A DNA stretch of 64,000 nt from Blasia pusilla (Eukaryota): NCBI GenBank assembly GCA_050084515.1, contig CM114271.1, forward strand, positions 28,396,001 through 28,460,000. The letters run 5' to 3'. The notes below the pieces were generated by a model that saw nothing but the letters and a program-made list of their open reading frames with translations, did not search any database and was not told where the DNA came from. Numbering within the stretch: position 1 is the stretch's first letter; the number at the start of each line of letters is the position of its first letter. The translations under genes were made by a program, and so were the position numbers. Positions 15,482 to 53,258 of this stretch are shown here, piece by piece.

Positions 15482-15483
15482 GT

Positions 15484-15592
15484 TGTCGTGCGCATACACA
15501 TCGCTGTCAGCAAACACACACATAAATACGCACGATCCCATGCTCACTCATGGCATCCAAACAACGAGACAAGAAGTACCAAAATATCTCCA
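15484..15592 (-). repeat. Short TG...CA repeat B of Gypsy copy 1, preceded by purine tract AGGGGGGCGA
   Basis: Homologous to 52533-52658 and 53148-53258; joined to repeat A by AC. Confidence 0.7.
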
Positions 15593-15774
15593 ATCGCCCC
15601 CCTAGGTGGTGGTTAGGTCCCTCTAACTTCAGATAACCATATATCCCTATCTACCATGACATACATTTCTCGGACGCTAAGAGCAAGAAGGCCGAGTGCT
15701 CATATGGCTCCATCGTTAGTCGCCTTTTTGTCATCCATATCACAGACACAAGTCGGAATGTAGAACTACCTACT

Positions 15775-17170
15775 CTATGTACATCTGGGACACATCCATT
15801 GTCCTTGAGAAACCCTAGTGAGAGATGGCGTCAAGCATGCCATATGCCATCCTCTCGAATATCCATCAAAGACTAGCATAGTGGTTGCACCATTGGTCGA
15901 ACCACACAACATACATTGCAAGCTTGCAAGAACTACTAATAGGCTCGGATCAACTATTCCGTCAATGTTCGGGAGCTGACACGGTGCACAATTATGCATA
16001 TGGTCCTTCCAAACCAAACCATCGCATCCCTCCAATAAGAGAACACCTGATGGCAAAACCTCACGCACTCTCAAGATGGTGCACCCTACAGTCACATCCA
16101 ACGTTGTGGGTGTCGTGTGATGCAAGTAGACATAGTTTCCTAATGAAACCTCCGGATAGAAGGTCGATAACCATCCCCCCAAAAAGTTGCATACCTCAAT
16201 GTATCCCGATGCTGTGCAATCGCCAAGTTCTCAAACGCCATGGGGATCACTCTCTGGAACAACTCAACCCTCTATGAACATGCTCCCATCCATACATCAG
16301 CGTCATCAAGGTTCAACACCTCACCAACATCTTGACGAATAGCTGCAGGTAAATCGGGCTCACGACCATAAAGTAGCAAGTGCGATGAGAAAGATGCTAA
16401 GGATGCCTGCTTGCCAAATCTGTATCCCATCGCCAACCACGACAATTGAAGGTCCCAATCTCCTCGGTGACCTCTCTTCAAGCCATATTTGGGTAATCCT
16501 CTCTTCACCATCTGCACAACCCTCTCCACTAGTCCATCCACCTTAGGATGATCTCACAAAGTGGTGCGGTGGTCGATTAGTGCCTAATCACACAAGGCAT
16601 GAAACTCCCCGCGAAACTCTATACCTTGGTCTGTCAGTACCTCAGCTGGTGCACCGTAATGACTCATGACTCAATCTAGGAAGGCATATGCTACTCCCTC
16701 ATTTGCTTTGTCAGGAAATGCCACCAACTCTATCCACTTCAAGAAGTGCTCGACCATCACCAACACATAACGACTATGGCGCTCCGTCAAAGGCACAGAT
16801 CATGCAAAATCCAAACTCCATCTATAACCTAAACCCATGATCGAAAGTGGATGCAATTGTGAAGTGGGAGCATTGAATGATGCTCGGACTCGATCACACA
16901 CCATGCATGTGGCAACAAACTACTGAACGTCAGTTTGCATGCCTCGCCACCAATATTGAATCTGGAGCAAGTTGTACGTCCGCTTCACTCCAAAATGATC
17001 CAACTCCTCATGGGCATGACGCACCAAACATGCTCTCTGCAAAGGATGAGGCACTACATGCACTCTAGTATTCTCCCACACTCACAACACACATGTCCTC
17101 TTCCACCGGAACCGTCTGGCTCGCTGTAGGATCTGATCCCGCTCTCTAGCATCCATTGTGCTCGCGATGC
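15775..17170 (-). pseudogene. Gypsy integrase with C-terminal PHD finger (copy 1)
   Basis: GLVERVVQMVK, WDLQLSWLAMGYRF, then CMLC...DGYSRGWHMACLTPSL...WMCPRC. Confidence 0.85.
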
Positions 17171-17199
17171 TGCCTGTACATCAACATAGCTCCAAGCCC

Positions 17200-18290
17200 C
17201 AACATGATCCAATCAGTATGCAACTCTGATCGGTCTCCTTAATACAGGCGCAGAAATCAATCTATCTTTGAGCAACGAAAATGCTCTCTCCTGCTCATCT
17301 CCCTAGTGCCACTCCTGATCCACCTTGGTCAACAAGGTTAGCGGCTTCGCAAGCGAACTGAAACCCTTGACGTACCGTCGATAGAAGTTCATCAATCCCA
17401 TGAATGGACAAACTCGACTCATATCTTTGAGCCATGGAATGCATGAAATAGCCTCTACCTTCGTCTGCTGCACACCAAGGCCCCCTAGGTATATCGTATG
17501 ACCCAGGTACTTAATTTGGTCGTAGAAGAACTTGCACTTGCCTGGATGTAGCTTCAAGCCATGTAACTGCAATCGTCGAAACAACTCCTCTAGATGTCGC
17601 TAATGCTCCTCAACTGTGGTGCTAAAGACTACGATGTCATCAATATAACATGTAGCAAATCCAAACCTGGCAAGAACCTATCCATGATCCTCCGAAACTC
17701 ACCTAGGGCGTTCTTTAACCCAAATGGTAAGAACCGCCAGTGGTACAAACAATCCTTCCCGTGAGGATCGATGCCCCAAAAAGCCGTCTTCTGTCTGTCC
17801 TCCAATCTGATAAGAAAATGATGGTATTCAGCCCGAAGATCTGACAAACTGAAGACCTTTGTATGCCCAATAGCATCAAAGATCTCCTCGAGGGTGGGCA
17901 TGGCATAACTATCAGACTTTATTTGCCAATAGATAGGTCAATAATCTGCACACATCCGTCTATCTGTCTAGTTGCCATGCACATACTTCTTGGCGGGCAT
18001 GACAGTAGCAGATGCATACTCTCCATGTGACATCTCCACTGGTCCTGCTTCAACTAAGTCCTTGCTCATATTTTGAATCAGAGCCCTCTCTATGTCATTA
18101 TGCCTGTAGAGTAGTCGGAAGATTGACGTGTCAATCGACAACTCAATGCGGATCCCTGGATCCTTCAGCGTACCAAAATCCTGCATGCTAAATGCAAAAA
18201 AACTCTTATAACTCCTCAAGAATTGATGTATTCGGCCGTGCTCTAGCGATCTCCTCCTGTCATCTTAGGGCCCATATCTGGCTCCCAAGT
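17200..18290 (-). pseudogene. Gypsy reverse transcriptase (most of RNase H deleted), copy 1
   Basis: YASATVMPAKK, MPTLEEIFDAIG, FLPFGLKNA, LKLHPGKCKFF...YLGH, FYRRYVKGFS. Confidence 0.9.
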
Positions 18291-18647
18291 CTCCATCGTG
18301 ACTATAGTAGGACTCTCTGGCGCGGGTGTAGGTGGTTGCTATGGTGCAATCCCGTCTCGAACAATGAAACTCGATTGCTCTTCTACTGCCAACTGCAAAA
18401 TATGATCTCCATGTGCAGTACCCAGGACCACGCTCGATACTGTGGCTACCATCTGAAGGCGTACCTGCAAAAAATCCCAAGAAGTCCAACGATGTCTCTC
18501 ACAATCATACCTGGTGTATCGATCTCCTCAGGTCTCGCCCCTAGCCATTGCCTCAACCGTCTCGGTAGGCATGGGGCTCACCAACGCAACTATAGTGATC
18601 TGTCGCATCCTCAAACGACGTTGCTCATGTACTCCTAAGATGAAAAT

Positions 18648-19586
18648 CTATGTCAAGCATTTCAGGTCCATTGCATGATCCAAGACATCACGTTGTGATA
18701 CCTCTGATAATGACGATATTGCCGTCACTCCTATGGGGAATCCCATTGCTCGCTCTCGCTCATCGACATTGGGCTCCACCAACCTCTGTACTTGGTCATC
18801 CCAAACCAAGCCATGTCCAGCATCCTTGAATGCATAGGAAGCGGGAAAACTCACCAATGTGGGAAAGGCTGCTCGTGGCATGCCAATCCTGTTGACCACA
18901 ATCAATGGCGATCGATCATTGTGCCTCATTGGCTGTGATCGACGGCATGGATCTAATATACAATCCACCAACAAATTGGAGGGATGCTCCACTCTCGCAT
19001 AAGCCCTCCGCAATACCTCATGTGGCACCAAGTTGGTCCACCAAAGATGCAGGAGATGTGCTCGTGAATCCACACTCGCCGCATCCAACAAAACTTCCAG
19101 ACCAATCCATGTGCGCGCACCTGATGTGCCCTCGTCACAACATGGGAACTCGAATCACCCAAAATCGGCATATTCTCCAAAATGTATGCTAGAGGACGAG
19201 ACTGATGCTCTTGCAAGTGTCGCAAGATCCGCATCATCTCCCAAAACAACCTGGACTTAGAGTGCTTATCCGCTATCCCGTCCAACACTTGATTGGCCAT
19301 GTTAGGGCCAATCAGCAATGACCAAGTCTATGGTCCCTAACTGCTCCAAGTCCTGCAACCCCACCAATGAAATGCCCCTCGATAAGGAACTCTGGTAATC
19401 CTGAATGGCGCACGCAGACAACAAGTCTAGAAAACGGAGGCGTAACTGCGCCATATGGTAAAGTGAAGCACGCCTCGCAACATCATCAATCTCCACATAC
19501 AGGTACTGTTGCACGCGCACTCCAGCTTGCAAAACAACAACTAACCCAATGCTGATCCCTCCAAAGAGATCCATCACCCGAATACC
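18648..19586 (-). pseudogene. DNMT3-like C5-cytosine DNA methyltransferase domain in Gypsy pol (copy 1, frameshifted)
   Basis: VMDLFGGISIG (motif I), YLYVEID (II), IDLVIADWP (IV, damaged), YILEN (VI), SRAH...WWTNL (VIII), ERERAMGFP (IX), VLDHAMD (X). Confidence 0.85.
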
Positions 19587-19997
19587 TTGCTCTAGGATGC
19601 ACCACACAATCGGGGTGGTGTCAAAAGGGGTCATAGCAGCACTCCTTGCTACATGGGGTTCCTCGGACCTGTCATACTCTGGTGCAAACGTCTCGCTCCA
19701 CGCGGTCTGCACATGCTTAGTGGCTAAGCATCAAAGCTCCTCAGTCGAGCCCCAAAGCGGCACCTCTCCTCCACGGACTCATGCAGCTACCATGACACTC
19801 CTCTAGAATAGGAGTATCCTTTGCATGGATAGGTCCCTCAATCAAATCACTAAGCCAAGTGATGGCACTACTATATGGTGCTAAGGTCGCCATCTCTCTT
19901 GGCCGTCGATCGATACTGCACGTGTGAATCAAACGGGTAATGAGCTAAGGCATCCATCACATGACTTCCATCCTAGTCTATAGGACGCTGACTCCTC

Positions 19998-20330
19998 CTA
20001 GTAATCCAAGGAAAATCCCATCGGGTATAACACTTCTCCACCAACCAAGACGTTGTAAGACTTTTCATAAGTCACTATCGCCTTGGCTCGCATCAGTGTC
20101 TCATTTGTAGGAGCTCTCGGGTGAATCCTCACCATGACCTCTTGTCGGGTGATATACTTGGTGGTATTTGCTCCACCAAAGGATGTGTGTATCCGGAATG
20201 GACAATGCTCCACATTGGCTCTCGTCAAGCCCAATCCTCTGAATGATGCTTTCCCCAACATTAGGGGTTGCGCTCCTGAATCCAACAAGACGAGCTGCGG
20301 ACTAAAAGCTCTACCTCTTAGACTCACCAA
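19998..20330 (-). pseudogene. Retropepsin aspartic protease (copy 1)
   Basis: VLLDSGAQPLMLG active-site motif and downstream YNVLVGG motif. Confidence 0.8.
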
Positions 20331-20849
20331 CTAGAAGACCTCTCTCCATGTATCCAACAACATAACACCAAGAGAAGCCATGGCACACTCTATCACGGGT
20401 TTAGTCGGCATCTTCGCCAACCAAGCAGCCGTAGCTTGCCATGAATCTGACATGGACGACCCGAGCATCCGCTCCAAGGGCAGGTCCATCACCTCCCCTG
20501 CAATCACCTCTGAACATGATGCAGGAACTCCAACTCCATGGTCACACAACATAGCGGCCAGCTAAAAAACCTCGGCGGGCGTACCTCCCAACGTCGTAAC
20601 ATTGGATGCACAAAATAAAGGAGCGCGGGACACAACAATGGCCTCCCCCAACAACGTGCTCAACACATGCTCCTCTTGAGCATCAACAATATGAATCGTC
20701 GTACTTGCTTCTCCCATGGCCCTTTGTGCCTGCACACCAACAACATCAACAACTCTCTGGGAATTGTGATCAGGACCCATTGATGGGGTCCTCATTGCCT
20801 CGAAAAACGTGAAGGACTGAGGAAGCTTGGTCTGTTTCCTAGCTTCTCC

Positions 20850-22180
20850 TCACTGTGGATCCAACTCTACGGCTGCTCCATGCATAATAACTGCGATAGC
20901 CTCCATATGGGCAACCCCGCACATCCAACCAAGATCCTCCATATCTCTAGCGGCTCCATAAGACGTTGATGACACGGATTCGGTATCGGGTAATCTCAAT
21001 ACCATAGCGGCAATCTGCTGTTGTAGCTGTTGTATCTGAGCAGCCATCCCAGCCTCACCTCCGGCATCTCCCTTGATGTATGTAGGTGGTGGGACTCTAC
21101 CTCCTCTTGTCGGGCAACTCTAGCTCCTCGTCCCCCAACGAGACCACTTGGTGCACGTCCCCTAGGCCCACCCAGACCAGCAACTCACTCTGGTGCCTTC
21201 TCAAGCCCTTGGCCCGAACGTAACTTATGGTGTAAACTGAAATACCATGTACGTGTGTGACCATACCTGTGAAAATATTCACAATAATAACCTCCTGGTG
21301 TAGCACCATCTCCTCCTCCATGGTGAGGCACATGTCCATGACTCTGATGAGTGCAGTCGCGTTGATGATGGGCTCCACCACATGACCAACGAGTTATCAT
21401 AGGCGGCTGCTGCTGAGCCACATATGAAGATGCAGGTCTCTATGGCACGAGCTCCCGGTATTCTCCATGCGCTTGCAGTGCCACAATCGACCTATCTCGG
21501 AGTCCACATTGCTGCATTGGTGGAGGCAATCGCGATTGCTCTCGCCTAGAACCCATGGTGGCTACGCTCTCCTCCGCCATGTTGCGCTCTATGTTCTTGG
21601 CGGTCCTAAAAACATCTCTCAATGTAGGGGAGGTGTTCATAAGAAGCATCCCCTCCCGCACTTGTGTCCGTAGGGTCTAGTGCAGCAGCGCGTACCGTGA
21701 CTGGATAGGTTGAGTCTTTGTCATCCCCTGAGTGACATTGATCAATCGGCGCAAGCAAGTGTAAGCCTCATGCAAACTCTCACTCGGGCATCTCTGGAAG
21801 TCGTGGATGCTCCTAAACTTCTCCTTCCGTACCCCTTGGTAGCTCGCCCTCAACTCAACGAAGAACTCAACCACGTGGTTGAACATGGGACGAATCCGAC
21901 TAGACGGTGCAACTGCTCCAGTGCGAGTGACCCCTCCGTAACATCACTATTGGAAGAGGAAGTAGCCTCTCTTGACTCCTCCTCCTCATCTGGGAATGGC
22001 TCCGTCCATGACATATAGTGTGGATCATAGTATAGTCGTCATGCCTCAATCTCCTGGGCATATGTGTGGGAGAACTCATCGTAATTGTCAATGGGCGCCC
22101 CCTCTAAATGCTGAAACATATCGTTTCATGCCTTAAACGGGTTGAACTTTCTAGAGTTCCTAGCCCGTTGTGAGTCACAC
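20850..22180 (-). pseudogene. Gypsy gag with zinc knuckles (copy 1, 5' part deleted)
   Basis: WSCGGAHHQRDC and YCEYFHRYGH knuckle remnants; homologous to about 45530-46900. Confidence 0.7.
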
Positions 22181-22804
22181 CAGCCAAATGGGGCTCTAAG
22201 CGGTCGTAGGCGACAACAACGGTCGACGATCAAAGGTCGACGGTGGATGGTGACGATGGACCATTGATAATGACGATGGACCATCGACGGTGATGGTTGA
22301 CTATTGATGGCGGACCGTTGAAGGTGAGGGCCGCCGCCGCCGCGGCTGCTGGTTTGAATAATTTTACCCTCAAAATCGCCTAACAATGGCAAATCTGCAA
22401 AATTGGCCATAACTTTCTACTCGAAGCTCCAAATTGTGCACCATCTATTGCATAGCGTGCATAACTTTGCCATCTACGATGGTCTCAAATAATATTTTGT
22501 AATCGGACCTTTGTATAAAAATTTACTGGGATTGTTGCAAGTCCCAACGTCTCTTCTCCTACGGAAATTTTGGCAGTGCTTACGCGCTGATTTCTCTCCA
22601 AAAAAATTAAAAACCTGTGAAAATAAAAATCAGCAAGCTACACGGTGCTCATGAGAGCATCGGTATGGGGAAACCCACCCCCATACTTAATCCCTATCAG
22701 AAATTGGGCACCGCTTCCGCGTGCCACTCTCTCACACAAAAAATCAGAACACAAACATCAAAACATGCGGCTCTTGCTCCCATGAGCACTCCTATCATCC
22801 ATGA

Positions 22805-23410
22805 AGCAAGAAAAATATTCCCCAACATGCACGTAACATCAAGCAACCAGCGAGCTTCCCCTTTAAGCTCTCTCACTCTCTCATTCTCTCTTTGTAAAAT
22901 AAGGTGAAATCTCTCGCAACACCATAACTCTCAAATATGTGCAGTCTCGGATGTCGCTCTCAATGTCAAACTTAACCCACTCTCCTAACGAGAGCCTTGG
23001 GTTACACACACAAGGCAAGCAAGACCATATCTCCGTCGCCTCATGCCAAGAGGTTCAATAAAGAGAGAATGAGCTCTCAAGCTCTCTCTCGTTGAGGTAT
23101 ACCCTTTCCCTCTCCCAAATTCTCTCCATGGTAACCTATGCTTCCAAGTCACCTCCTTGGCTCTTGACTTGATGTAGGAGGTCAATGGCCACTTACCAGA
23201 AATAGTAAGTAGACCATATACTCAAAATGATACTTATCTAAAATAGTAAGTTCCTCAATGTGGCTCCAAGTGAGCCGAAACGCAGGGGAAACCTGCTCTC
23301 TCATGTTTCTTGGGGCCTCTGTAGGTCATCCTCAACCTCCAGAGTATGTCCTCCACTACTCGTGAAGGCGCTCTACTCAATGTTACCGATCTATCCTAAA
23401 ACACGTGACT
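22805..23410 (-). repeat. 5' terminal repeat A (LTR-like) of Gypsy copy 1
   Basis: Begins (A)GTCACGTGTTTTAGGATAGATCGG on the minus strand directly against Helitron sequence; matches 14878-15481. Confidence 0.85.
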
Positions 23411-38911: not shown

Positions 38912-38934
38912 TATTCCACATGAGAGTGGATATT

Positions 38935-38943
38935 GAGGGGGGA
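38935..38943 (+). other. Polypurine tract of Copia D
   Basis: GAGGGGGGA directly before the TG of the 3' LTR. Confidence 0.85.
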
Positions 38944-39604: not shown

Positions 39605-40090
39605 TGTCACGTCTTTTAGGATAGATCGGTGAGATCTAGTAGATTGCCTTTGTGAGTAGTGGAAGACAGGCTCAGTAGGTTGAGGACGACCTATTGAGGC
39701 CCCGTGAAACCTGAGAGAGTAGGTTTCCCCTTCGTTTCGGCTCATTTGGAGCCATATTGAGAAACTTGCTATTTCAGGTAAGTACCATTTTGAATATATA
39801 ATTGATTTTATATTTTTGATAAGTGGCCATTGACCTCCTACATCATGTCAAGAGCCAAGGAGCTGACTTGGGAGAATAGGTTACCATGGAGAGAGCTTGG
39901 GAGAGGGGAGGGGTACACTTCAAGGAGAGAGAGCTTGAGAGCTCATTCTCTCTTTGTTGAACCTCTTGGCATGAGGCGGCGAAGCTATGGTCCCTTGCCT
40001 TGTGAGTGTAATCCAAGCCTCTCATTAGGAGAGTGGGTTTTGTTTGACATGAGAGAGAGTGCATATCTTTGGGAGCTATGGTGTGAGATG
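39605..40090 (+). repeat. 5' terminal repeat A of Gypsy copy 2 (resumes at about 43614 after the LINE fragment)
   Basis: Direct repeat of 52661-53147. Confidence 0.9.
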
Positions 40091-43000
40091 ATCTAGATAA
40101 TGGGCCCCAAACTTGGGTCCCATATAAGACCACCGACAACATTAAGCTCATAAATAAGAATTTCCTAAGACCCCAAGACACAAGATGAGCTCTTCTACAT
40201 CGGTTTAAAAATGAATATAGAGCTTTGTAACCAGCTTCTACTCTCTTTTGCACGCAAAGTGCCCAACTATAATCATTAGAGAAATCGATGCCTAGATATT
40301 TATAACTCTTCACTTGTTCTAATTGTAGACCTTTGTAAAAGAACGAGAACTTGGATCTAGTATCCACTACAATGACTTTAGACTTCTCCATATTAACCTC
40401 CATCTGATTCTCGATATAAAACCTTGCCAAAATGTCAAAGTGTTGTTTTTAACTAATGCCATCACGTGCTAGTAATATGATATCATCTGCATACAAAAGA
40501 GCTTTGATGACAAAGTCCCCAAGCTTGACACCTTCAATATCACATTCCTCCAACCAATTTTAGATATCATTTATGAAAACTCCAAATAGAGTAAGGGAGA
40601 GAGGACAACCTTAAATGACTCCGATGGTACTCAAGATCTCTTGAGTTTGTGAACCTTTGATTTTGGCCCGAACGGAATAGGTTAACGTGGCCACGACTGC
40701 TAGGAGATTTGGTGGTACTCCAATGGCTTGCAGCCTTTCCCATAAGAGCTTACGAGGTACAGTATCAAAAGCTTTCTTGAAATCGATGAAGCCGCAAAAT
40801 AAAGCTTTTCCATTGCCCTTAGATTTCTCCCATAAAACACGCAAGGCCAAGATATGGTCGATGGTGTTGTATGTTGGGCAAAAACCAGCTTGGATCCGTG
40901 CTCTCTTTTGGAAAGACTCTCTCTATGCGCTCAACTTTGACTCCACAAATTTCCCTAACAACTTGGCAAAAACACTACCCACCATGATAGTGCGATAGTT
41001 TGTCAGCAAGTCCTTCCTTCCTGATTTGAGAATAGAAACAATCTCCCGTAGCGACCAGGTTGAAGGAAAACCATAGATAGAAGCATCACCCAATACTTTG
41101 GTGAGGATCGGTCCAATACAATCTCCTCCCCACTTGAAAAGTTCAATAGAAAGACCATCCAAATCCTCACATTTACCATTTGCTAATCTTCTTAGTTGGG
41201 TTATCACCTCTCCTTTAGAGAATAAGCCAGGTATTCCCTCACAACGTGGCATAGATGTAGCGTCGGGGAAGAAATAGATCTTTTCGGCAAAAGATACCAA
41301 AGACTTGGGATCAAGAGTAGGTTTTGAAGACCGTACTACTAACCATCTCCAAAATGATTTGGGGTCCTCGTGCAGCTCCCTTGTTAAGGACTCTTGCTTC
41401 CGCTACAAGAAAGCTCGTTTCTTAGATTTTACCAAGTCTTTGCAAAGGCTCGTCATAATAAACCGACTTTAGAGATCCAAAGATTTATCAACTGATCTTG
41501 CCATTGCTTGCTTGCATTCATAGTCAAACCACCCATTACAAGGCAACCTCCTAGCACTTCTATCCCTATGCCGCGAAAATAACTTAGATGTAGTGTTGTT
41601 GAGCAATTCGGTTAGTTGCAAACTTGCCGTGTGTGGATCTCCGCTCCATACAATGCGAGTCAAGAGTTCTTGTAAATGTAGCGTATAAAGATCATTTTTA
41701 CCAGGATTTAAGGTTAAAAAATGCTCTGTCAAAGGATTTGTAGAAAGATCTGAAGAGATTCTAGACCACAAAATATCCTCCTTTTCTTTGAGAAGAGGAG
41801 AAGTCAAGGAATCACTGAATTGGGTAAATTGAGCAGTACGGGTGCGAGCATTGAAATCCTCAACTAGAAAGACTTCACCTTTGCTTTGATATTTGAGAAC
41901 ATTCCCAATAAGTTAATGGAACGGTTGACTTAGATTGTAAGTGCGTGTTGAGTAGATAGGCATGGACAGTGGTGCAAAATAACAAACTGCCAAATAACAA
42001 TAAGATCCCCCAACCAAACCAAGATGTAGCCAATGATATTGGCCCCTGATATCTTGATCTTCTAGATGTATGAGAGATAGAAATTGAGACCTGATGAAAG
42101 GAGCAATACCACCATAATCCCTTCATGCCCGCATCGCGTAGATGAGCAATAAAACTTGCTTCTTGAGCCTCTTTGACCTTTGCAAGCTCCTTTCTCCTAG
42201 CTTCAACTTGTAGAGGTGTAAGATCAAAATCCAACCATATCCTCTGTCCTTTGAGAATGGCCTTGTTAGCCATGGCAATATCACGTTGAGTTTGATCAAC
42301 AAACTTAACTAGAATGGCACGAGGTTGTATTCCCGTTTCCCCAACACGGAAAGCTTGAGCCAAGTCCGGGTTATGAACATGAAGTGTATCAACCAAGAAC
42401 TTGGTGACAACACTCTTCACCTATTCGCTCTCTATTTTTGGCAAACCTGAGATTATCACATTCTTTCTACGGGCAATTTGGTTTTTCTTTTCTATCTCTT
42501 GCTCTTGACAGAAGAGATATGAGCAACCTTTGTAAGATTTCATTTTTTACTTCTAAAGTTTTAACAACCTTATGCAATCCAGGACTATAAGGAGTAGTCG
42601 CTAATGATGATGCCTTCTCTTGAACATCCGCAACAGATTTGGAAAGATCGAGCATCACACTAGAACTATCTTTCAACACTTTCTTGAAAACCTCTTGGGT
42701 TGCCTTTAATTCTCGGATTTGAATATGTGCAAGGTTTAATTAAGAAGTTTGTACCTTGAATTATTGTTGAAGCTCTTTCAATTTGTGCAAGACCACTTGC
42801 ACTAGATTCAAGATTTTGTCTTGAGTAGTCATCATGTAGTCGACTTCACTACATCCCAGATATTCCACGACCTCCAATAAAGTATAACCAAATCTCCAAC
42901 ACCATACAACTTATGCTCTAGAACGTACTTGAAATTCTTATAGCTATGACGCCTCTTGACACTCCACGTTGTCTCAAAATATTAGCTTCATATCACACTC

Positions 43001-43613
43001 CACCTTAAAGATATGGCCTCCGCAAGATTTAGATCTTAAATCGTAAAATCTAGAAGAGCAAAAACTCAAATCTCGCACAACTTCGTGTGTGTAATTGGGT
43101 TGTGCTTAAAATTTTCAGGGCTAGGATGCCTCTTTATATTCCATGTTTTCTCAAAATATCAGTTTCACATAACACTTCATCTTAAAGATATGGCCTGCGT
43201 AAGATTCAGATCTAAAATCCTCAAATCTAGAAGAGCAGAAATTCAAATCTCTCACAACTTCGTGTGTGTAATTCAATTGTGTTTGAAATTTTCAAAGCTA
43301 AGACAAATTCTTACATTGTAAGTTTACTCAAAATCTTAGCTTCATTTGACACTCCACCTCAAAGATATGGTCTCTGTAAGATTCGGATCTTAAATCCTCA
43401 AATCTAGAAGTGCATAATCGCAAATCTCTCACAACTTCGTGTGTGTAACTCCGTTGTGCTTGATATTTTCAGGGCTAGGACACTTCCTAATTCTCCACGT
43501 TTCTTCAAAATCTCAGCTTCATTTCACACTCCACCTCAAAGATTTAGCCTCTGCAATATTCAAATATGAAATCCTCAAATCTAGAAGAGCAGAAACTCAA
43601 ATCTCTCCTCAAA
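40091..43613 (-). mobile_element. Non-LTR retrotransposon (LINE) fragment: 5' tandem repeats, ORF1, partial APE endonuclease, RT; 3'-truncated
   Basis: ORF1-like RAILVKF...IWLDFDLT; EDFNAR endonuclease motif; NYRTI, QAGF, FIDFKKAFDTV, GCPLSP, YADD, YKYLG. Confidence 0.9.
42960..43613. repeat. Tandem repeat, period about 178 bp, about 3.7 copies, at the LINE 5' end
   Basis: Anchor (C/T)TCAAAAT recurs at about 42973, 43150, 43328 and 43504, with shared AAATCTAGAAG and ACAACTTCGTGTGTGTAA blocks. Confidence 0.9.
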
Positions 43614-45269
43614 TGTAGAGAGAGATTGGATCTTACTTTACAAAGAGATAATGAGAGAATTGAGAGAGTGAGAGACCTTCATGGGGGAGTTCGCTGGTCA
43701 TCTGTTTTTTTTCAGGTTGGTGACTGTGTTCCCTCTTCAGCGGCTCATGGGAGTGCTCACCAGGGCAAGGGCTGCTTTGATTGTTCTTTGCATTTGCCGA
43801 TTTTTCGTATGGAAGAATGGCACGCGGAAGCGGTGCCCAATTTCTGATAGGGATTGATTATGGGGGCGGGTTGCCCCATGCCAGTGCTCTCAAGAGCACC
43901 ATGCAGCTTATTGATTTGTATTTTTACAGGTTTTATATTTTGGTTGGGAGAAATCATCGCGGAAGCGCTCCCGAATTTTTTGTAGGAGAAAGAGACATTG
44001 GGCTTTACGACAGTCCCTATCAGTTTTTACTGGAATGTCCAATTCCAAATATTTTTTGACGTTGTCGTAGATCGTGAAGCTATGCACATTGTGCATCAAA
44101 CAAACTCCAATTTGGGGTTGCGAGTAAAAAGTTATGGTCAATCTTGCAAAACTGCCATTGCTAGGCGATTTTTAGTGTTAAATTGTTCAAACCCTAAACC
44201 AGCCGCCACGCCGTCATAATCACGGTCAACGGTCAACCGTCACCATCACCATCAACGGTCAACCATCACCATCAAAGGTCCACCATCCACGTCGCCGTTT
44301 CCGTCGCCCAACGTTGCTCAGAGCTGCATTTGGCCGTTTTCCACCCTTTGGTTGACATTGCCGCCATTACGAAGTGGAGGGTCTTTCACGACCACCGTTG
44401 ATTCTTTGACTTGCGCCGCCACCACGTACTTTGATTTGGCCGCCTCATCATCAAAGTTTCGTCATCAACCAGTGATGGTATATGATCTCCGATTATGGTG
44501 TTTGAGTTTTGATTTCATGCTACTATGTTGTGATTGATAGCCGCTCGACGAGGATCGAGTACCGTGCCATGACGCCTGTAGCCGCAACGCGCCGCAAATT
44601 TCCGCACCGTGCCGCTTGTGGCCGCACTGCACCATCTTGATTGCGGAGCCGCACCGTCATTGTGGAGCAGAGTATGGGTTTATTGTTGATTGAGGAGGGA
44701 ATGCCGCCGAGTGCCGTATCCCACCATCAAGGATCGTGCCATTTGGTGCCGCTTGCAACGCCGCACTATTCCGCTGGAACCGCACTGTCCATCAAGGAGT
44801 TTTAAGTAGTGTTGGTACGGGAGGAGTATGACTTGCTGATTGGAGGAGTTGACTCCACGACTGAGTTGGGATCAAGATTTGCAGTTGCTCAAGAGCAACT
44901 GCAAATTCTGGTCCTTTACCCTGTACTTGTGAGGGATTCTGGGATTTGGGTAGTTTATTTGGGGATATTGGGTGTGTGGATGCTGAGAGCATCATTTATG
45001 TATGTGTTTTAGGGGACATAGACCTGTATGGGGTGTCCAGAGTTGAGGGTAGGTTGTCGATGAGATGATAGTCTGGTCGATTTGCCGCACCACGCCGCTT
45101 GTTGCCGCACGTTACATGTCTCGGGGAGGGAGAGTGTAGATCGAGTGCCGCATGTTTGGGATGAGTGATTGAGGGATTACTCGCGAGGTTGAGAGTGATC
45201 TTGTGAGAGGGGCACGAGGGCCATCACAACCTCCTTTCAAGATTTTGAGAGCCGAGGTAGTGGACCTAA

Positions 45270-47400
45270 GAGTAGCTCCGGCGGGTTTACCCGGAGTGGT
45301 ACGAGGTTTCGAGGATCTCCACGTGAGAGACCATATCGATTTCCTTCTGTGTTGTCTTCAGACGAGGGAGAGCATGTAGAGGAGTTTGTGAGCACATCGC
45401 CACACATTGTGAGTGGTCCTACCAGTTGGGCGTATGAGATGGACGGTCGGGGTAGAGGACCGCGTAGGTTTTCAAGTGCAGTAGGCACGATTAAGTTGCA
45501 CGATTTCATAGCAAAGTTTAGGAGTTTGTGCGACTCCCTGCGGGCCAGGAACTCTACAGAGTTCAACTCGTTTATAGAATGGAACGGTATGTTCCAGTAT
45601 TTAGAGGGGCGCCCATGAACGATTACCATGAGTTCTCTCAGAGATATGCGCGTGAGATCAAGGCGTGGAGGCTCTACTATGACCCACATTATGTGTCATG
45701 GACAGAGCCATTCCCTGATGAGGAGGAGGAGTCAGGAGAGGCTACTTCCTCTTCCACTAGTGAAGTTTTAAGAGGGGTCACTTGCACGGGAGCTGTTGCA
45801 CCGTCTAGTTGGGTTCGTCCCATGTTGAACTCTGGGGTAGAGTTCTTTGCTGAGTTGAGGGCGAGCTACTAGGGGGTATGGACGGAGAGGTTGCGGAGCA
45901 TCCACGACTTCCACAGGCGCCCGCGTGAGATTTTGCATGAGGCTTACACTCGCTTGCGCTGGTTGATCAACATCACTTAGGAGATGACAAAGGCTTAGGC
46001 TATCCAGTCATGGTACGCGATGCTAGACCTGACCCTACGGACACGGGTGCGGGAAGGGGTGCTTCTTATGAACACCTCCCCTACGTTAATAGATGTTTTG
46101 AGGACCGCCGGGAACATTGAGCGCAACATGGCGGAGGAGAGCGTAGCCACCATGGGTTCTGGGTGAGAGCAGTCACGATTGTCTGCACTACCTGTGCAGC
46201 AACGTGGACTCGACTGTGGCACCACGAGCTCAGGGAGGATACGAGGAGGCCGTGCCACAGAGACCTGTGCCTTCATATGCGGCTCAGCAACAACCGCCTA
46301 CTATTACTTGTTGGTCATGTGGTGGAGCCTATCATCAGCACGATTGCACTCGTTACGGTCAAGGATGTGTGCCTCAGCATGGAGGAGGAGATGGTGATGC
46401 ACCAGGAGGTTATCAGTGTGACTATTGTTAGAGGTATGGTCATACACGCGCCAGGTGTTTTAGTTTACATCATGAGTTACGTTCAGGGTCGAGGGCCAAA
46501 GAGGGCACCAGAGCGAGTAGCCGGTCTAGGTGGGCCTAAAGATCGTGCACCAGGTGGTCCCATTGGGGGAAGAGGAGTTGGAGTTTCCCGACAGGATGGT
46601 GGAGTTGACCATGGAGGAGATAGAGTCCTACCACCTAGACGCGTCGAGGGAGATGCCAAGCGTGAGGCTAGGATGGCTTCTCAGATACATCAGCTATAGG
46701 AGTAGATTGCCGCTATGGCATTGAGAATACCCGATGCCGGATCCGTGGCATCGACATCATATGGAGCAGCCAGAGATATGGAGGATCCTGGTTGGATGTG
46801 CGGGGTTGCTCTGATAGAGGCAGCCGCAGAGTTGGATCCACATCGAGGGGAAGCCAGGAAAAAGACTAGGCTTTCTCAGTCTTTCACGTTGTCTGAGGCG
46901 TTGAGGACCCCTTCGATGGGTCTTGATCAGAGTTCCAGGAGAGTTGGTGATGTTGTTGGTATGTAGGCATAGAGGGCGATGGGAGAAGCGAGTGCAACGA
47001 CTCCTACTGTTGATGCTCAGGAGGGGCATGTGTCGAGCACGTTGTTAGGGGCGGCCACCATTGTGTACCGCGCTCCTTTATTTTTTGCTTTCGATGTTAT
47101 GACGTTGGGGGGTACGCCCGCCGAGGCTTTTTGGCTGCCTGCTACGCTATGTGAGCGTGGAGTTGGAGTTCTGCATCACGTTGAGAGGTGATTGCAGAGG
47201 AGGTGATGGACCTGCCCTTGGAGTGGATGCTCGGCTGTCCACGTCGGATTCATGGCAGGCTGCGGCTTCTAGGATGGCAGAGATGCCCGCTAGACCCGCG
47301 CTAGAACGTGCCATGGCTTCTCTTGGTGTTGTGTTGTTGGATAACCAAGGAAAGGTCTTCCAGTTGGTGAGTCTCGGAGGTAGAGCTTTTAGTCCGCAGC
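45270..47400 (+). pseudogene. Gypsy gag with two CCHC zinc knuckles (copy 2)
   Basis: CWSCGGAYHQHDC and CDYC*RYGHTRARC; fragmented ORFs homologous to copy 1. Confidence 0.75.
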
Positions 47401-47979
47401 AAGTATCACCCGACAGAAGGTCGTGGTGAGGATTTGCTCGGGACATCCTGCAGATGAGTCCGTGGTGCGAGCCAAGGCGATAGTGACTGATGTAGAGTCC
47501 TACGACGTCTTGGTTGGTGGAGCAGTGTTATACCTGATGGGGTTTTCCCTGGACTACTAGGAAGAGTCAGCGTCCTACAGACCATGATGGCAGTCAGGTG
47601 ATGGGTGCCTTAGCTCATTACCCATTCGATTCACATGTGCAATGATCGGCCACGAGAGATGGCGACCTTAGCATCATTTAGCAGTGCCATCACTTGGCCT
47701 AGTGATTTGATTGAGGGACATATCCATGCAGAGGATACTCCCATTCCTGAAACTTCTATGGAGAGGAGTGTTATGGAAGCCGCATCATTCTGTGGAGGAG
47801 AGGTGCCGCAGTGGGGCTCGACTGAGGAGCTTCGACAATTGGCAGATGAGCACGTGCAAACCGCATGGAGCGAGGCGTTTGCACCGGAGCATGACGGGTC
47901 TGAGGAACCCGAGGTAGCAGGGAGTCCTATGATGACACCCTTGGATACCACACCCATTGTGTGATGTACCTCGGAGGAG

Positions 47980-48920
47980 GGTATTTGAGTGTTAGATCTC
48001 TTTGGAGGGATTAGCACCGGGTTAGCTGTTGTTTCGCAGGCAGGAGTGCGAGTGCAACAATACCTGTATGTGGAGAGTGATCATGTTGCGAGGCGCGTCT
48101 CACTACGACATATGGCGCAATTACGCCTACATTTTCCCGACTTATTTTCTGCGTGTGCGGTAGAGAGGTACCAGAGTTCCCTACCAAGGGATATTTTGTT
48201 GCTGGGGGCGCAAGACTTAGACAAGTTAGGCACCATTGATTTGGTCATTGCCGGTTGGCCATGTCACGGCCAATCGAGTCCTGAACGAGGCAACGGGTTG
48301 GCTGACACTCGGTCCAGGTTGTTTTGGGAGATGTTGAGGGTCTTACGGCAGTTGCAGGAGCACCAGTCTTGTTCTCCAGCCTACAATATGGAGAATATAG
48401 CAATCTTAGGAGACTCCAGGTCATGGGTGGTGATGAGTGCTCATCAGGTGCGTGCCTGGATCGGCCCAGCAGTGTTCTTGGATGCGGCGAGTGTAGGTTC
48501 TAGAGCCCATCGCCCGCGTCTATGGTGGACCAACTTGGTGCCCCATGCGGTGTTACGGAGGGCGTATGCGAGAGTGGAGCGCCCCTCCCATTTGTTAGTG
48601 GATTCCATTATGGATCCAGGTCGTCGCTCACAGGTAGTGAGGAACAATGATCGACCACCGTTGACTGTGGTCAATAGGGTAGGCAAGTCGCAAGCAACCT
48701 TTCCCACGTTTGTGAGTTTTTCCGCTTCCTATGCATACAAGGAGGCCGGTCGTGGCTTGGTTTGGGATGATCATGTTCAGAGGTTGGTGGAGCCCAACGC
48801 CGACGAGAGAGAGCAGGCGATGGGATTTCCCACAGGAGTGACGGCAGTACCGAAAATATGAGAGGCATCACTACGCCATGTCTTGGGTCATGCGATGGAC
48901 CTTAACAGCTTGACATGGAT
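47980..48920 (+). pseudogene. DNMT3-like C5-cytosine DNA methyltransferase domain in Gypsy pol (copy 2; 290-aa open stretch)
   Basis: LDLFGGISTG (I), YLYVESD (II), DI (III), IDLVIAGWPC (IV, catalytic PC intact), SRLFWEMLR, MENI (VI), DAASVGSRAHRPRLWWTNL (VIII), EREQAMGFP (IX), VLGHAMD (X, after one stop). Confidence 0.92.
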
Positions 48921-49272
48921 CTTCAACTTGGGAGTGGCTGAGCAGCGTCCGATGAGATCGCGACAGATCACAGCAGTTGCGTTGGTGAGCCCCATGCCTA
49001 CCGAGACGGTGGAGGCAGTGGTTGGGGGTGAGATCCGAGGAGATCGACACACCATGGGAGATCGAGAGAGACATCCTTGGACTTCTTGGGATGTTTTGCA
49101 GGTAAGTCATCAGATGATAGCCACAGCATCGAGCGTGGTTCTCGGCACTGCATGTGGAGGAGACAAGAGTTTGCAGTTTGCTGCAAGAGAGCGCTCGAGT
49201 GTTGTTGTTCGAGACAGGGTTGCACCATAGCAACCACCGATATCCACGCCGGAGAGTCCTACCGTAGTCACA

Positions 49273-50750
49273 ATGGAGACTTGGGAGCCAAATATGGGCC
49301 CTAAGTTGACAGGAGGAGAGCGGCGCCAAATACATCACTTCCTTAGGAGTTATAGGAGCTGCTTTGGGTTTAGCATGGAGGATTTGGGTATGCTGAAGGG
49401 ACCGGGGATCCGCATGGAGTTGTCGAGTAATACGCCGATCTTCCGACGACCCTACAGGTATAGTGATATGGAGAGGGCTTTGATTCAGAGTAGGAGCCAG
49501 GACTTGGTTGGAGTAGGACTAGGGGAGATGTCGCATGGGGAGTATGCATCTGCCACTGTCATGCCCGCCAAGAAGGATGTGCGTGGCAACTGGACGGATA
49601 GGCGGATGTGTGGGGATTACCGACCTATCAATCGGCAGACGAAGTCCGATAGGTATACCATGCCCACCCCTGAAGAGATCTTTCATGCGATTGGTCATGC
49701 AAAGGTTTTCAGTTCATTGGATTTGCAAGCCGGATACCATCAGCTGCCTATCAGATTGGAGGACATGAAGAAGACGAAATTTTGGGGCATTTATCCTCAC
49801 GGGAACGATTGTTTGTACTAGTGGGGGTTCTTACCATTTGGGTTAAAGAATGCCCCAGCTAAGTTTCAGAGGGTCATGCATAGGATCTTGGCTGTTCTGG
49901 ATTTTGCTAGGTGTTATATTGATGACATCATAGTCTTTAGCGCCACGATTGAGGAGCATGAGCGACATCTAGAGGAGGTGTTTCGACGATTGCAATTACA
50001 TGGGCTAAAGCTACATCCAGGCAAGTGCAAGTTCTTCTACGACCATATTGAGTACTTGGGTCATACAATATACCCGGGGGCCCTTGGTGTTCAGCAAACA
50101 AAGGTACAGCCTATCTCACGCATTCCACGGCCTACAGATCTGATCCGTGTTCGCGCATTCATGGGATGGCCAAACTTCTATCGGCGGTACATCAAGGGAT
50201 TCAGTTCGATTGCGAAGCCGCTGACCTTGCTGACCAAGATGGATCACGAGTGGCATTGGGGGGATGAGCAGGAGCGAGCATTTCAGTTGCTCAAGGACAG
50301 GTTGATGTCCATGCCTATCTTGAGGAGACCAATCAGGGGGCGTCCTTTCAAGTTCCACACAAATTGGAGCATGTTGGGGCTTGGTGCGGTGCTCACCCAA
50401 CATGATGATGAGGGTAGAGAGTTTGTGGTGGCTTATGCTAGCCGCTCAAACAATGCTGCAGAGGCAAAGTATAGCTCGTATGCGGATGAGTGCTTGGCTA
50501 TGGTGTGGGTTGTCGCGCATTTCAGGTGTTACTTATTCGGCAATCCCTTTACCATGATCACTGATCATCAACCACTGAAGTGGTTGATATAGTCCGACAA
50601 GCTTACGGGGAAGCTTGCGAGATGGGCTCTGTTGTTGCAGGAGTATGATTTTCATGTGGTACATAGACCTGGGATGCTCAACCAGGATGCAGATGGATTG
50701 AGTCATAACCCATGCCCGATTCAACGAGATATGATTGGAGCTCGATAGCA
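49273..50750 (+). pseudogene. Gypsy RT and RNase H (copy 2)
   Basis: RMCGDYRPIN, LDLQAGYHQ, CYIDDII, YLGH, VVAYASR, ITDHQPLKWL. Confidence 0.95.
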
Positions 50751-50930: not shown

Positions 50931-52344
50931 TTGGAGTACCTTTGGACTTGCAACGTTGCGAGCACCATGGGTGCTAGAGAGTGGGATCGAATCCTACAGC
51001 GGGTCAGATGGTTCCGTTGGGAGGGGACACATGTTTTGAGGGTTTGGGAGGATGGCAGAGTACGCGTAGTGCCGTTTCCTTCGCAGAGAGCACGACTAGT
51101 TCAGCATGCTCACGAGGAGTTGGGTCACTTTGGGGTGAACCGGACATACAGCTTGCTCCAGATTCAGTATTGGTGGCGAGGCATGCAGACTCACGTTCAT
51201 CAATTTGTTGCCAAGTGCATGGTGTGTGATCTGGTCGGAGCATCGTTCAATGCTCCGACTCCACAGTTGCATCCATTACCGATCATGGGCTTAGGTTATA
51301 GATGGAGTTTGGATTTTGCAGGACCTTTGCCTTTGACGAAGCATCACAGTCGTTATGTATTGGTGATGGTCGAGCACTTCTCGAAGTGGATCAAGTTGGT
51401 TGCATTTCTTGACAAAGAAAGTAAGGGAGTAGCTTATGCCTTCCTTGATAGAGTGTTGAGTCATTATGGCGCACCGGCTGAGGTGTTGACAGATCAGGGT
51501 AAGGAGTTTCGCGGTGAGTTCTAGGCCTTGTGTGATCAGGCGTTGATCAACCATCGCACTACTTCGCGAGATCATCCTGAGGCGGATGGATTAGCGGAGA
51601 GAGTTGTGCAAACGGTGAAGAGGGGTTTACGCAAGTATGGCTTGCAGAGGGGTCACCTAGGAGATTGGGACCTCCAGTTGCCCTGGTTGGCGATGGGATA
51701 CAGATTCAGCAAGCAAGCATCCTTAGCATTCACCGTACTTGCTTCTTTATGGCCAAGAGCCAGATTTACCTGCGGACATTCGTCGAGATGTTGGTGAGGT
51801 GCTGGACCTTGATGACCCAGATGTATGGATGCGAGCATGTTCTCAGAGGGCTGAGTTATTTCGGAGAGTGATGCCCATGGCGTTCGAGAACTTGGCGATT
51901 GTGCAGCATGGGGATACGTTCAGGTATGCGACTATTGAGGGTGGTGGTTATCGACCAATTATCCGGAGGTTTCATCAAGGAGATTATGTCTACTTGCAGC
52001 AGACGGCACCGACGATGTTGGATGTGACTGTAGGGCGCACTATCCAGAGAGTGCGTGACGTTTTGCCATCCGGTGTTCTCTTGCTGGAGGGACGCGGTGG
52101 TATGGTATGGAAGGACCATGTGCATAATTGTGCGCCATGTCACCTTCCTAACATTGATGGTACAGTCGATCCGAGCTTAGCAAAAGTTCCTGCAGGCTTA
52201 CGTTGTATGTTGTGTGGTTCTGCGCGTGGTGCGGCCACAATGCTAGTCTATGATGGATGTTCGAGAGGTTGGCATATGGCATGTTTGATGCCACCTCTCA
52301 CTAGGGTTCCTCGGGGACGATGGATGTGTCCCAGATGTACATAG
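50931..52344 (+). pseudogene. Gypsy integrase with C-terminal PHD finger (copy 2)
   Basis: HHCC (HEELGH...CMVC), LDFAGP, LTDQGKEF, GLAERVV (D,D,E), then CMLC...DGC..GWHMACLMPPL..VP.G.WMCPRC. Confidence 0.92.
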
Positions 52345-52532
52345 AGGAGATATTAGGTACGTTTGGATTTTGACTTTAAATGTGATATGGATGACATGAA
52401 GGCGACTAACGATGGGCCCATATGAGCACCTAACCTTCTTGCTCTTAGCGTTTGAGAGATGTATGTCATGGTAGGTAGGGATAGATGGTTATCTGGAATT
52501 AGAGGGACCTAACCACCAGCTAGGGGGGCGAT

Positions 52533-52658
52533 TGGAGATATTTTAGGACTTCTTGTCTCGTTGTTTGGATGCCATGAGTTAGCATGGGATCGTGCGTGTT
52601 TGTGTGTGTGTTCGATGACAACGATGTATATTGTGTAGCGATGTATATGCGCACGACA
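52533..52658 (+). repeat. Repeat B1 (TG...CA) following purine tract AGGGGGGCGA (52522-52531)
   Basis: Repeated at 53148-53258. Confidence 0.8.
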
Positions 52659-52660
52659 AC

Positions 52661-53147
52661 TGTCACATCTTTTAGGATAGATCGGTGAGATCTAGTAGAG
52701 CGCCTTCGTGAGTAGTGGAGGACTGGCTGAGTAGGTTGAGGATGACCTGCTGAGGCCCCGAGAAACCTGAGAGAGCATATTTCCCCTTCGTTTCGGCTCA
52801 TTTAGAGTCATATTAAGGAACTTAGTATTTTAGGTAAATACCATTTTGAGTATATGATTGACTTTCTATTTTTGGTAAATGTCCCTTAACCTCCTACATC
52901 ACGTCAAGAGCCAAGGAGGTGGCTTGGGAGAATAGGTTACCATGGAGAGAGCTTGGGAGAGAGGAGGGGTATACCTCAAGGAGAGAGAGCTTGAGAGCTC
53001 ATTCTCTCTTTGTTGAACCTCTTGGCATGAGGCGGCGGAGCTATGGTCCCTTGCCTTGTGAGTGTAACCCAAGCCTCTCATTAGGAGAGTGGGGTTGGTT
53101 TGACATGAGAGAGAGTGCACACCTTTGGGAGCTATGGTGTGAGATGG
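52661..53147 (+). repeat. 3' copy of terminal repeat A (Gypsy copy 2)
   Basis: TGTCACATCTTTTAGGATAG...; matches 39605-40090. Confidence 0.9.
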
Positions 53148-53258
53148 TGTAGATATATTTTATGACTTATTGTCTCGTTGTTTGGATGCCACGAGTTAGC
53201 ATGGGATTGTGCGTGTTTGTGTGTGTGTTCGGTGACAACGATGTGTATGCGCATGACA
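53148..53258 (+). repeat. Repeat B2 forming the right terminus of Gypsy copy 2
   Basis: TGTAGATAT...GCATGACA; Copia C RT resumes immediately after it. Confidence 0.8.

Follow-up and report, generated by a model that had tools for sequence, protein, structure and literature searches.

A PHD finger closes the integrase of a DNMT3-bearing Ty3/gypsy family in Blasia pusilla and is predicted to read the histone H3 N-terminus with little K4 discrimination

The window analysed in the present study, a stretch of 64,000 nucleotides from Blasia pusilla (contig CM114271.1 of assembly GCA_050084515.1, positions 28,396,001 to 28,460,000), contains two copies of one retrotransposon family. Copy 2 lies on the forward strand and begins with the TG of repeat A1 (39605..43639, +), which is interrupted near its end by a LINE (~40100-43613). 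A1 is directly followed by a putative self-priming site (43640..43655, +), which is, with one mismatch in copy 2, the reverse complement of A ~338-353 (39942-39957 in A1 and 52998-53013 in A2). The coding part starts with a degenerate Gag-like and protease-like region (approximately 45400..47700, +), recognized by its position, a zinc-knuckle-like motif and a D-S-G motif and giving no Pfam hit, and continues with a DNMT3-like cytosine methyltransferase domain upstream of the reverse transcriptase (47970..48870, +), a fixed in-frame TAG followed by CAA-CCA, which is a probable readthrough site (49228..49236, +), the reverse transcriptase and RNase H, interrupted by stops (49231..50600, +; PF00078, PF17917, and PF17919), and the integrase zinc finger and DDE core (approximately 51080..51960, +; PF17921 and PF00665), which are frameshifted in copy 2. 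The integrase C-terminal beta domain and linker (approximately 51960..52203, +), which we take to be SH3-like as in Ty3 integrases, lead into the PHD finger and the stop codon that end Pol (52204..52344, +). Downstream, a polypurine (G) tract (52522..52530, +) abuts repeat B1 (52531..52658, +), the CA end of B1 is separated by a 2-nt spacer (52659-60) from the TG of repeat A2 (52661..53155, +), and repeat B2 (53152..53258, +), the 5' part of which is deleted in this copy, closes the element with CA. The flanking bases, ACGT (39601-04) and AGAT (53259-62), agree at 2/4 positions. Copy 1 (14890..23409, -) comprises A1, degenerate ORFs, B1, and A2 with ~100 bp of 5' internal sequence, and is without B2.

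Both copies lie inside other transposable elements, as the first-pass annotation of this DNA had stated. Copy 2 interrupts the reverse transcriptase of a minus-strand Copia element between YADD and VLIT of its motif, and copy 1 has Helitron Rep on one side and helicase-like sequence on the other; a single window with two nested copies says little about targeting. Several further repeats were observed in the window. A second Copia element (34414-39436, +), with LTRs of 405-490 bp, a tRNA primer site and 2,781 first-look candidates in the host genome, is inserted in the same minus-strand Copia reverse transcriptase that holds copy 2. The degenerate LINE near the A1 end (40100-43613, -) carries ORF1-like and reverse transcriptase motifs and 178-bp tandem repeats at 42925-43607, and two Helitron Rep regions (2914-4454, -, and 12407-13922, +) are 65% alike in opposite orientation.

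The PHD finger of copy 2 (52204-52341, +) reads CxxC-x11-YxxC-x4-H-xxC...WxCPRC, is in frame with the integrase C-terminus in a frame spanning 51727-52344 (+), and is followed by a single residue and the stop codon (52342-44). The finger of copy 1 is located at 15778..15915 (-). The third Cys is Tyr in copy 2 (codon 52249-52251) and Phe in copy 1, in agreement with the first reading of the sequence, and Cys4 of copy 1 is also replaced, by Tyr. In a Pfam scan of 26 of the 27 window ORFs of at least 150 aa, the PHD profile PF00628 scored 36.9 bits in copy 2 and 28.2 bits in copy 1, both above the gathering cut-off of 24; together with the reading frame, these scores confirm the claim that a C4HC3 signature closes the integrase in both copies. 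The nearest solved single domains are those of KDM5/lid PHD1, PHF12, KAT6A, DPF3, BHC80, and ATXR5, and the predicted model (mean pLDDT 87.5) superimposes on the ATXR5 PHD at 1.0 A over 49 residues and on the DPF, ATXR5, MOZ, and BAZ2A PHDs with rmsd values of 0.7-1.3 A. The nearest solved domains and the structure overlay thus uphold the C4HC3 PHD originally assigned and place the finger with KDM5 PHD1, BHC80, and ATXR5. The finger is 72% identical to Marchantia Mp7g09570.

The loss of Cys3 in both window copies might suggest that the Blasia family carries the PHD as a functionless, decaying passenger, and a complete set of eight ligands was indeed observed in just 10/24 fully covered copies. 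Nevertheless, among 29 loci picked via the sequence upstream of the PHD, not via the PHD itself, every zinc ligand is the majority state: C1 in 26/27, C2 in 28/28, C3 in 22/29, C4 in 27/29, H in 29/30, C6 in 29/30, C7 in 23/27, and C8 in 23/27, so that the family consensus retains the residue that both window copies have lost. The seven remaining loci all carry Tyr at Cys3. The Cys3 codon stands in a CHG context, and transitions among copies occur at rates of 0.085 at CHG sites, 0.074 at CG sites, and 0.010 at A/T sites. A Tyr-bearing sublineage was also considered and ruled out, as Tyr copies do not cluster (distance of 0.072 between Tyr copies and 0.073 between Tyr and Cys copies). The CHG-context decay and the lack of Tyr clustering indicate that Cys3 is lost through recurrent decay after insertion, with the losses following the deamination of methylated cytosine. 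The PHD changes common to at least three copies gave an N/S ratio of 0.31 (8 and 8 changes, 16 total). Moreover, the PHD is retained from chlorophytes to liverworts, and this cross-species conservation largely refutes the passenger explanation, to which we give very little credence.

The Blasia family belongs to the lineage of KnitGypsy-Dnmt3, a Ty3/gypsy lineage that is old in green plants. The element that gives the lineage its name, from Klebsormidium nitens, is a Ty3/gypsy element with a DNMT3-like domain (PMC5890265), and the legend of Fig. 4c of that paper describes its repeats as DIRS-like. A query with the integrase C-terminus and PHD returned 80 long polyproteins, of which 77 carry PF00628 and the named hosts are chlorophytes; shorter matches were obtained in Marchantia (Mp7g09570), Calypogeia, Klebsormidium, Volvox, and Coleochaete, two Klebsormidium proteins carry integrase and PHD together, and one Marchantia protein is 79% identical. 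The reverse transcriptase-RNase H query, which contains no PHD, matched Marchantia Mp2g26090, Klebsormidium, and Closterium. In a FastTree analysis of this region (177 rows, those of <290 aa left out), the DNMT/PHD elements made up a moderately supported clade (0.76-0.80; 125-126 rows), separate from the chromodomain-bearing Haematococcus rows and the angiosperm rows. The Blasia copy is sister to Mp2g26090 (support 0.984) and shares a 38-row subclade (support 0.936) with KFL_013780010, a partial protein not matched to the copies named in PMC5890265. The methyltransferase domain precedes the reverse transcriptase in streptophyte-side rows and lies between RNase H and integrase in a 73-row, mostly chlorophyte-labelled subclade. 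The PHD is absent in eight rows on three branches, including Closterium and Tetraselmis, and five of these rows showed the DNMT, while one row of the clade is without DNMT; the pair of domains is therefore old and usually kept, and not obligate.

Several observations were made on the relatives themselves. The Marchantia "hypothetical proteins" Mp2g26090 (P0275), MARPO_0091s0058 (P0320), and Mp7g09570 (P0369) are pieces of DNMT3-bearing retroelements, and Mp2g26090 and Mp7g09570 belong to the KnitGypsy-Dnmt3 lineage. Chlorophyte-type polyproteins (P0008, P0046, and others) mostly extend 250-500 residues beyond the PHD, with one sub-cut-off match to an adenine methylase (E 0.004) and one sub-cut-off Tudor-like match, and some carry a G-patch ahead of the integrase. 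These extended polyproteins could be PHD-type counterparts of the EpiLTRs discussed below. In P0003-P0005, P0016, and P0017 (Pleodorina, Tetrabaena, and relatives), DNMT motifs IV and VI are altered, and volvocine-type elements possibly keep a catalytically changed form of the enzyme.

The first-pass annotation had proposed that the PHD replaces the chromodomain of chromoviruses. The position is indeed the same, behind the SH3-like domain of the integrase, but the statement holds only by analogy, because the reverse transcriptase clade lies apart from the chromoviruses, and there is no sign that the lineage ever exchanged a chromodomain for the PHD. No chromodomain (PF00385) was detected when 26 window ORFs were scanned, family DNA is absent from the 10 top-ranking chromodomain loci of the host genome, Pol stops one residue past Cys8, and the reverse transcriptase is not nested among chromoviruses. 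In the chromodomain-bearing part of the tree, the Haematococcus elements P0265 and P0278 carry a chromodomain and a PHD together, so two readers can coexist.

The methyltransferase of the window matched DNMT3A/B/C in all 29 of its PDB matches, and its motifs follow the unpermuted order I-IV-VI-VIII within a Ty3/gypsy polyprotein. The catalytic PC is kept in 25/31 aligned pieces, and the catalytic Cys column, read by eye from the alignment, in 74/80 rows. Methyltransferase activity of KnitGypsy-Dnmt3 was not observed in yeast, a result that its authors called inconclusive (PMC5890265). The stop between the DNMT and the reverse transcriptase is TAG in 27/28 copies and TAA in 1, with CAA-CCA next. 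UAG-CARYYA is a readthrough signal, and the TAG-CAA-CCA context fits it. Given the fixed TAG, Gag, protease, and DNMT would be produced together, and the PHD would be present only in Pol, from which it is presumably cleaved off together with the integrase. In DNMT3 proteins, the ADD and catalytic domains are adjacent, unlike the layout of the Blasia element, in which the stop codon and ~1,100 residues part the DNMT from the PHD. The idea of a reader paired with a writer stands insofar as a DNMT3-like domain was found in 79/80 long relatives (profile built from 23 of them and the window domain), all of them selected with a PHD-containing query; the pairing is nevertheless loose, as the domains are parted by a fixed TAG and the PHD is missing from three branches that retain the DNMT, and a coupling of the two activities is unproven.

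The residues by which the PHD may contact histone H3 were mapped from KDM5B mutants, in which L325 and W351 are essential, D328 contributes 30-fold, E321 ~10-fold, and D308, the K4 contact, ~6-fold (PMC4225485, in the passages available). Among 308 distinct clade PHDs, the D328 equivalent is Asp in 290, the L325 equivalent is L/I/V in 298, P347 is Pro in 274, and G349 is Gly in 252, while the D308 equivalent is acidic in 68. The Blasia PHD keeps the L325, D328, and P347/G349/W351 equivalents, i.e. the Asp after Cys3 that contacts H3R2 and the L/P/G/W pocket for H3A1. The Asp after Cys3 is present in 11/11 near-clade rows, and the Asp together with the Ala1 pocket in 28/29 genome copies. The acidic residue before Cys1 is missing: the D308 equivalent, at Cys1-4, is Ala or Thr in 24/27 genome copies and never acidic, and the E321 equivalent is Ala. 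Readers of H3K4me3 possess an aromatic cage with a Trp two residues before the His ligand. In the clade, the cage position is Gly in 284/308 PHDs and Trp in none. With the A1 and R2 contacts kept and the D308 and E321 equivalents lost, we infer a reader of H3 Ala1-Arg2 with weak K4 discrimination, and the H3K4me0 specificity that was initially assigned to this finger is doubtful.

The charge of the finger weakens even the predicted reading of Ala1-Arg2. The Blasia PHD has one Asp and a net charge of +4, is the least acidic of its subclade, and would be an unusual binder of a basic tail; the median net charge is +2 in the nearest subclade and -3 in a long-tailed, mostly algal group. A complex prediction with unmodified H3 1-35 of the same genome scored 0.34, compared with 0.01 for the best control, a result of weak grade for the tool, with contacts agreeing at least 91% and a partner pLDDT of at least 53. 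In the benchmark of this tool, which is without peptides, 51/78 solved and 2/108 mismatched pairs reached the mark, and scores of at most 0.60 comprised 5/78 solved pairs and all 4 passing mismatches, so that low passes are mostly wrong; moreover, memory of similar complexes that are already solved may explain the score. The acidic residues lost across the nearest subclade and a score barely at the mark are what would be expected if the liverwort-side PHD had lost histone reading and had become a basic module for DNA, RNA, the integrase, or a host protein surface. We consider this explanation improbable, since the Asp after Cys3 and the Ala1 pocket are retained almost throughout the near clade and the genome copies. 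The residues and the model taken together, the PHD likely tethers its protein to H3 tails.

The family is abundant and its sequences are found in RNA. A search of the host genome (390 Mb, 26 contigs) with the PHD region yielded 10,625 first-look candidates, a figure that is not a copy number. In a sample of 20 evenly spaced 10-kb stretches, 8 contain family DNA, which adds up to 11.3% of the sampled sequence. The exact junction pattern occurs 455 times, 85 of them on contig C1, where pericentromeric clustering was considered and dropped, since the 85 sites are uniformly distributed (KS p=0.44). In three raw RNA runs, assigned by species label only and with 10-12 million records of each read, 5,315-5,580 family reads per run were observed, most of them 90-95% alike and oriented as expected for sense RNA, which indicates that the family is transcribed in the organism of the RNA runs. 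Read depth across A masks the start position, because 3' read-through covers all of A. In addition, eight reads from the three runs skip 6,762 bases at L031:2820-9583, with GT-AG-compatible ends, and thereby connect the 5' region with the late part of the integrase core; if spliced in this way, an RNA could code for just the integrase C-terminus and PHD.

The insertion sites bear on the model put forward with the first-pass annotation, in which the PHD reads H3K4me0 and steers the integrase into heterochromatin, where the element's own DNMT acts in an ADD-like manner. From 88 loci, 57 3' flanks with an intact A2-B2 end and enough flank were compared with 400 tiles from 20 stretches, which are not independent, and with 46 flanks taken from 32 LTRs of a Copia that has no PHD; one of the Copia flanks is probably internal sequence, and solo LTRs count twice among them. 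The median CWG/GWC ratio was 0.44-0.48 in the flanks of the PHD family (0.48 for the 57 flanks), 0.66-0.69 in the Copia flanks (0.66 for the 46 flanks), and 1.0 in the control tiles, and insertion into own copies was observed in 15/57 PHD-family flanks, compared with 3/46 Copia flanks (p=0.009) and 42/400 control tiles. A further measure, any repeat hit (31/57 compared with 106/400), was dropped as biased, the library consisting mostly of family loci. The CHG-depleted flanks and the excess of self-nesting are in line with steering, as are the K4me0 readers among the nearest solved domains, the lack of an aromatic cage, the co-occurrence of DNMT and PHD among relatives found with a PHD-containing query, and the chlorophyte layout, in which the DNMT directly precedes the integrase. 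However, the PHD-less Copia is CHG-depleted too (PHD family compared with Copia, p=0.31 for all flanks and p=0.067 for non-family flanks), and steering into heterochromatin is therefore unsupported. Furthermore, the K4-contacting Asp is missing, the sites on C1 are evenly spread, the DNMT is far removed from the PHD and behind a stop codon, and DNMT-bearing Closterium, Tetraselmis, and other branches have lost the PHD. We regard this model as unlikely. Survival bias can explain much of the bias of surviving copies towards methylated repeats; nonetheless, the non-family flanks tend to be more CHG-depleted than those of Copia, and some targeting may be real.

The ends of the element consist of split direct repeats in the order A1…B1-A2-B2, with A of ~514 bp and B of ~130 bp. 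The A…B-A-B plan was observed in window copy 2 and in 5/10 long copies fetched, the rest being truncated or nested, and B-A-B in 23/30 junction-selected loci, with 5 truncated and 2 irregular; 5/15 fetched 5' stretches are without A1 (L174-176, L182, and L183), and three of four short A…B candidates are untypable. The termini are TG…CA, the B1/A2 junction reads CA-NN-TG, and the 4-bp target duplication in 17 paired copies is perfect in 11 and 3/4 in 4, with the window copy at 2/4 and one copy unparsed. A G tract directly precedes B1. The bases right after A1 are complementary to a site ~28 nt behind a TATA-like box, which is the same single place in A in 24/27 copies, and the match extends over at least 12 nt in 15 and is a perfect 16 nt in 8 of the 27 copies, compared with shuffle maxima of 7-11; no tRNA-type (TGG) primer site was found after A1. 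Several other forms were also observed. Three solo A-B units (L137, L116, and L133), the counterpart of solo LTRs, have one perfect 4-bp duplication and two of 3/4, L003/L173 has the form A-internal-B with a perfect duplication, and the A2/B2 joint of L157 contains a short filler that starts like the plant telomere repeat and is followed by a G-tract remnant.

B+A is delimited by the G tract on one side and the priming site on the other, so that reverse transcription would yield an LTR consisting of B+A, in which the attachment sites lie internally. Among 76 A2/B2 joints, A was found in 42 and AA in 19, both in every subtype, and a few joints carry bases that follow A1, while one keeps a remnant of the G tract (PPT). 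Such joint variants across subtypes are the expected residue of end-joining in each cycle, and a circle opened at the junction of the 5' LTR would yield exactly A-internal-B-A-B. The end structure suggests, in other words, that a DDE integrase opens an end-joined circle. Two-LTR circles are usually held to be dead ends for DDE integrases, and some bacterial IS circles are cut comparably to the proposed opening at CA-NN-TG. An alternative for the ends only, which fits any role of the PHD, is a PAT/DIRS-like route in which the RNA enters B2 and both repeat pairs are templated with no circle. Since 18 sense reads from the three runs cross A2/B2, B2 could be copied from RNA; the mirror product A-B-A-internal-B, the absence of which is unexplained by the circle model, was seen in 0/30 junction-selected loci, and the repeat plan of KnitGypsy-Dnmt3 has itself been called DIRS-like (legend in PMC5890265). 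We nevertheless rate this route as a serious but less probable alternative: the G tract and the priming site delimit B+A exactly, the joint variants occur in all subtypes, some with post-A1 bases and one with the G tract, and the element has a DDE integrase and 4-bp duplications, with rve and H2C2 domains and no tyrosine recombinase in the 26 window ORFs scanned.

Herein, starting from the identity, position and conservation of the PHD, the lineage, the end structure and the fixed stop, all of which are direct readings of the data, we propose an explanation that we favour with modest confidence, in which the PHD at the integrase end binds A1/R2 of H3 with little K4 read-out, the DNMT is separate, and integration proceeds through an end-joined circle. 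First, Gag, protease, and DNMT would be made up to the TAG, and readthrough would yield RT-RH-IN-PHD. The PHD would stay on the integrase and bind the free H3 N-terminus at Ala1 and Arg2; it would thereby hold the integration complex on nucleosomes while sensing K4 methylation weakly or not at all. As a separate, more abundant product, the DNMT would probably methylate the element's own cDNA, and selection after insertion could give much of the bias of surviving copies to old methylated repeats. Second, the RNA would start inside A, self-prime just past A1, and use the G tract ahead of B1, so that the product of reverse transcription would be a linear B-A-internal-B-A cDNA. The ends of this cDNA would be joined, and the integrase would open the internal CA-NN-TG junction and insert A-internal-B-A-B with a 4-bp duplication. 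In a broader and more tentative form, about which our belief and doubt are nearly balanced, an unrecognised, green-plant-wide Ty3/gypsy clade might combine a DNMT3-like writer and an H3 reader on the integrase with a self-primed two-LTR cDNA, attachment sites inside the LTR, and an end-joined circle cut at CA-NN-TG that leaves permuted DIRS-like ends, and the Blasia family, which accounts for roughly one tenth of the DNA, may methylate its own copies and preferentially insert into methylated repeats.

Transposon PHD fingers and DNMT3-bearing Gypsy elements are known already, each separately, and the motif alone is a modest finding. The layout of reader plus writer, in contrast, appears to be old and usual in the clade, from chlorophytes to liverworts, rather than a one-off of Klebsormidium, and it can reach a high copy number in a land plant. 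Such elements may inflate the counts of DNMT3 and PHD genes, as Marchantia Mp2g26090 and Mp7g09570 are pieces of them, and the missing K4 Asp provides a sharp and cheap way to ask what a transposon PHD reads. If the circle is the normal route, it would link LTR and DIRS-type end structures, and circle-using elements would be missed or mis-bounded by LTR finders.

Transposon-borne PHDs are widespread, and LTR elements with a reader plus a methyltransferase (EpiLTRs) have been described, according to the parts available of PMC5890265, PMC6673714, PMC2836005, PMC12885004, PMC4225485, PMC8557442, PMC9985172, PMC6317226, and bioRxiv 10.64898/2026.05.21.726589. In the open-access literature, Repbase reports being outside the search, no paper was found that describes a Gypsy element with both PHD and DNMT3, or integration through an end-joined circle. 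The term PHD is absent from the main text and supplements of PMC5890265 that were searched, figure images being outside the search, and the available passages give no end mechanism. The EpiLTRs of Cymbomonas and Euglena (bioRxiv 10.64898/2026.05.21.726589, in the parts available) resemble the Blasia element in uniting a reader and a cytosine methyltransferase in one LTR element, but they carry a chromodomain, DAM, and a DNMT4-sister enzyme, whereas the Blasia element combines a DNMT3-like enzyme with a PHD as its last domain; neither chromodomain nor DAM was found in the window ORFs scanned. The PHD is a known accessory domain of transposable elements, common in Chlamydomonas, as in REM1, CR1, Chlamys, and Ginger1, and the passages available on these elements do not report a PHD fused to the integrase of a DNMT3-bearing element. 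In REM1, the PHD reportedly lies in a separate antisense ORF with a chromodomain. As in chromoviruses, a chromatin-reader fold follows the integrase C-terminal domain, and self-priming is shared with the chromoviral Tcn1/Tf1 group, the Blasia site resembling the Tf1 type (PMC6317226, in part); the Blasia element differs in having no chromodomain, a separate reverse transcriptase clade, split repeats in place of two LTRs, and a DNMT. The ACGT flank of the window prompted a link to Phygy, which in REXdb has an NCGN target and a tRNA-Trp primer site; this link was rejected, as NCGN was found in 0/70 right flanks, with no TGG primer site after A1. The flank pair of L184 reads CGCG, not NCGN.

The finger itself resembles KDM5 PHD1, ATXR5, and BHC80 in its C4HC3 fold, the Asp after Cys3, the Leu at Cys3-2, the P-x-G-x-W Ala1 pocket, and the lack of a cage, and differs from them in having neither the N-terminal Asp (KDM5B D308, BHC80 D489) nor the loop Glu (E321) and in being net basic. 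With PAT/Ngaro-type DIRS elements, the family shares the repeat plan A1…B1-A2-B2; these have a tyrosine recombinase, whereas the Blasia element has a DDE integrase, TG…CA termini, and a 4-bp duplication. The closest system is KnitGypsy-Dnmt3, which has the same unpermuted DNMT3-like domain in a Ty3/gypsy Pol, DIRS-like split repeats, and a place in the same reverse transcriptase subclade. In the passages available of PMC5890265, that element is an acquisition of the K. nitens lineage with few copies; here, the lineage reaches liverworts and chlorophytes and makes up ~11% of the sampled genome.
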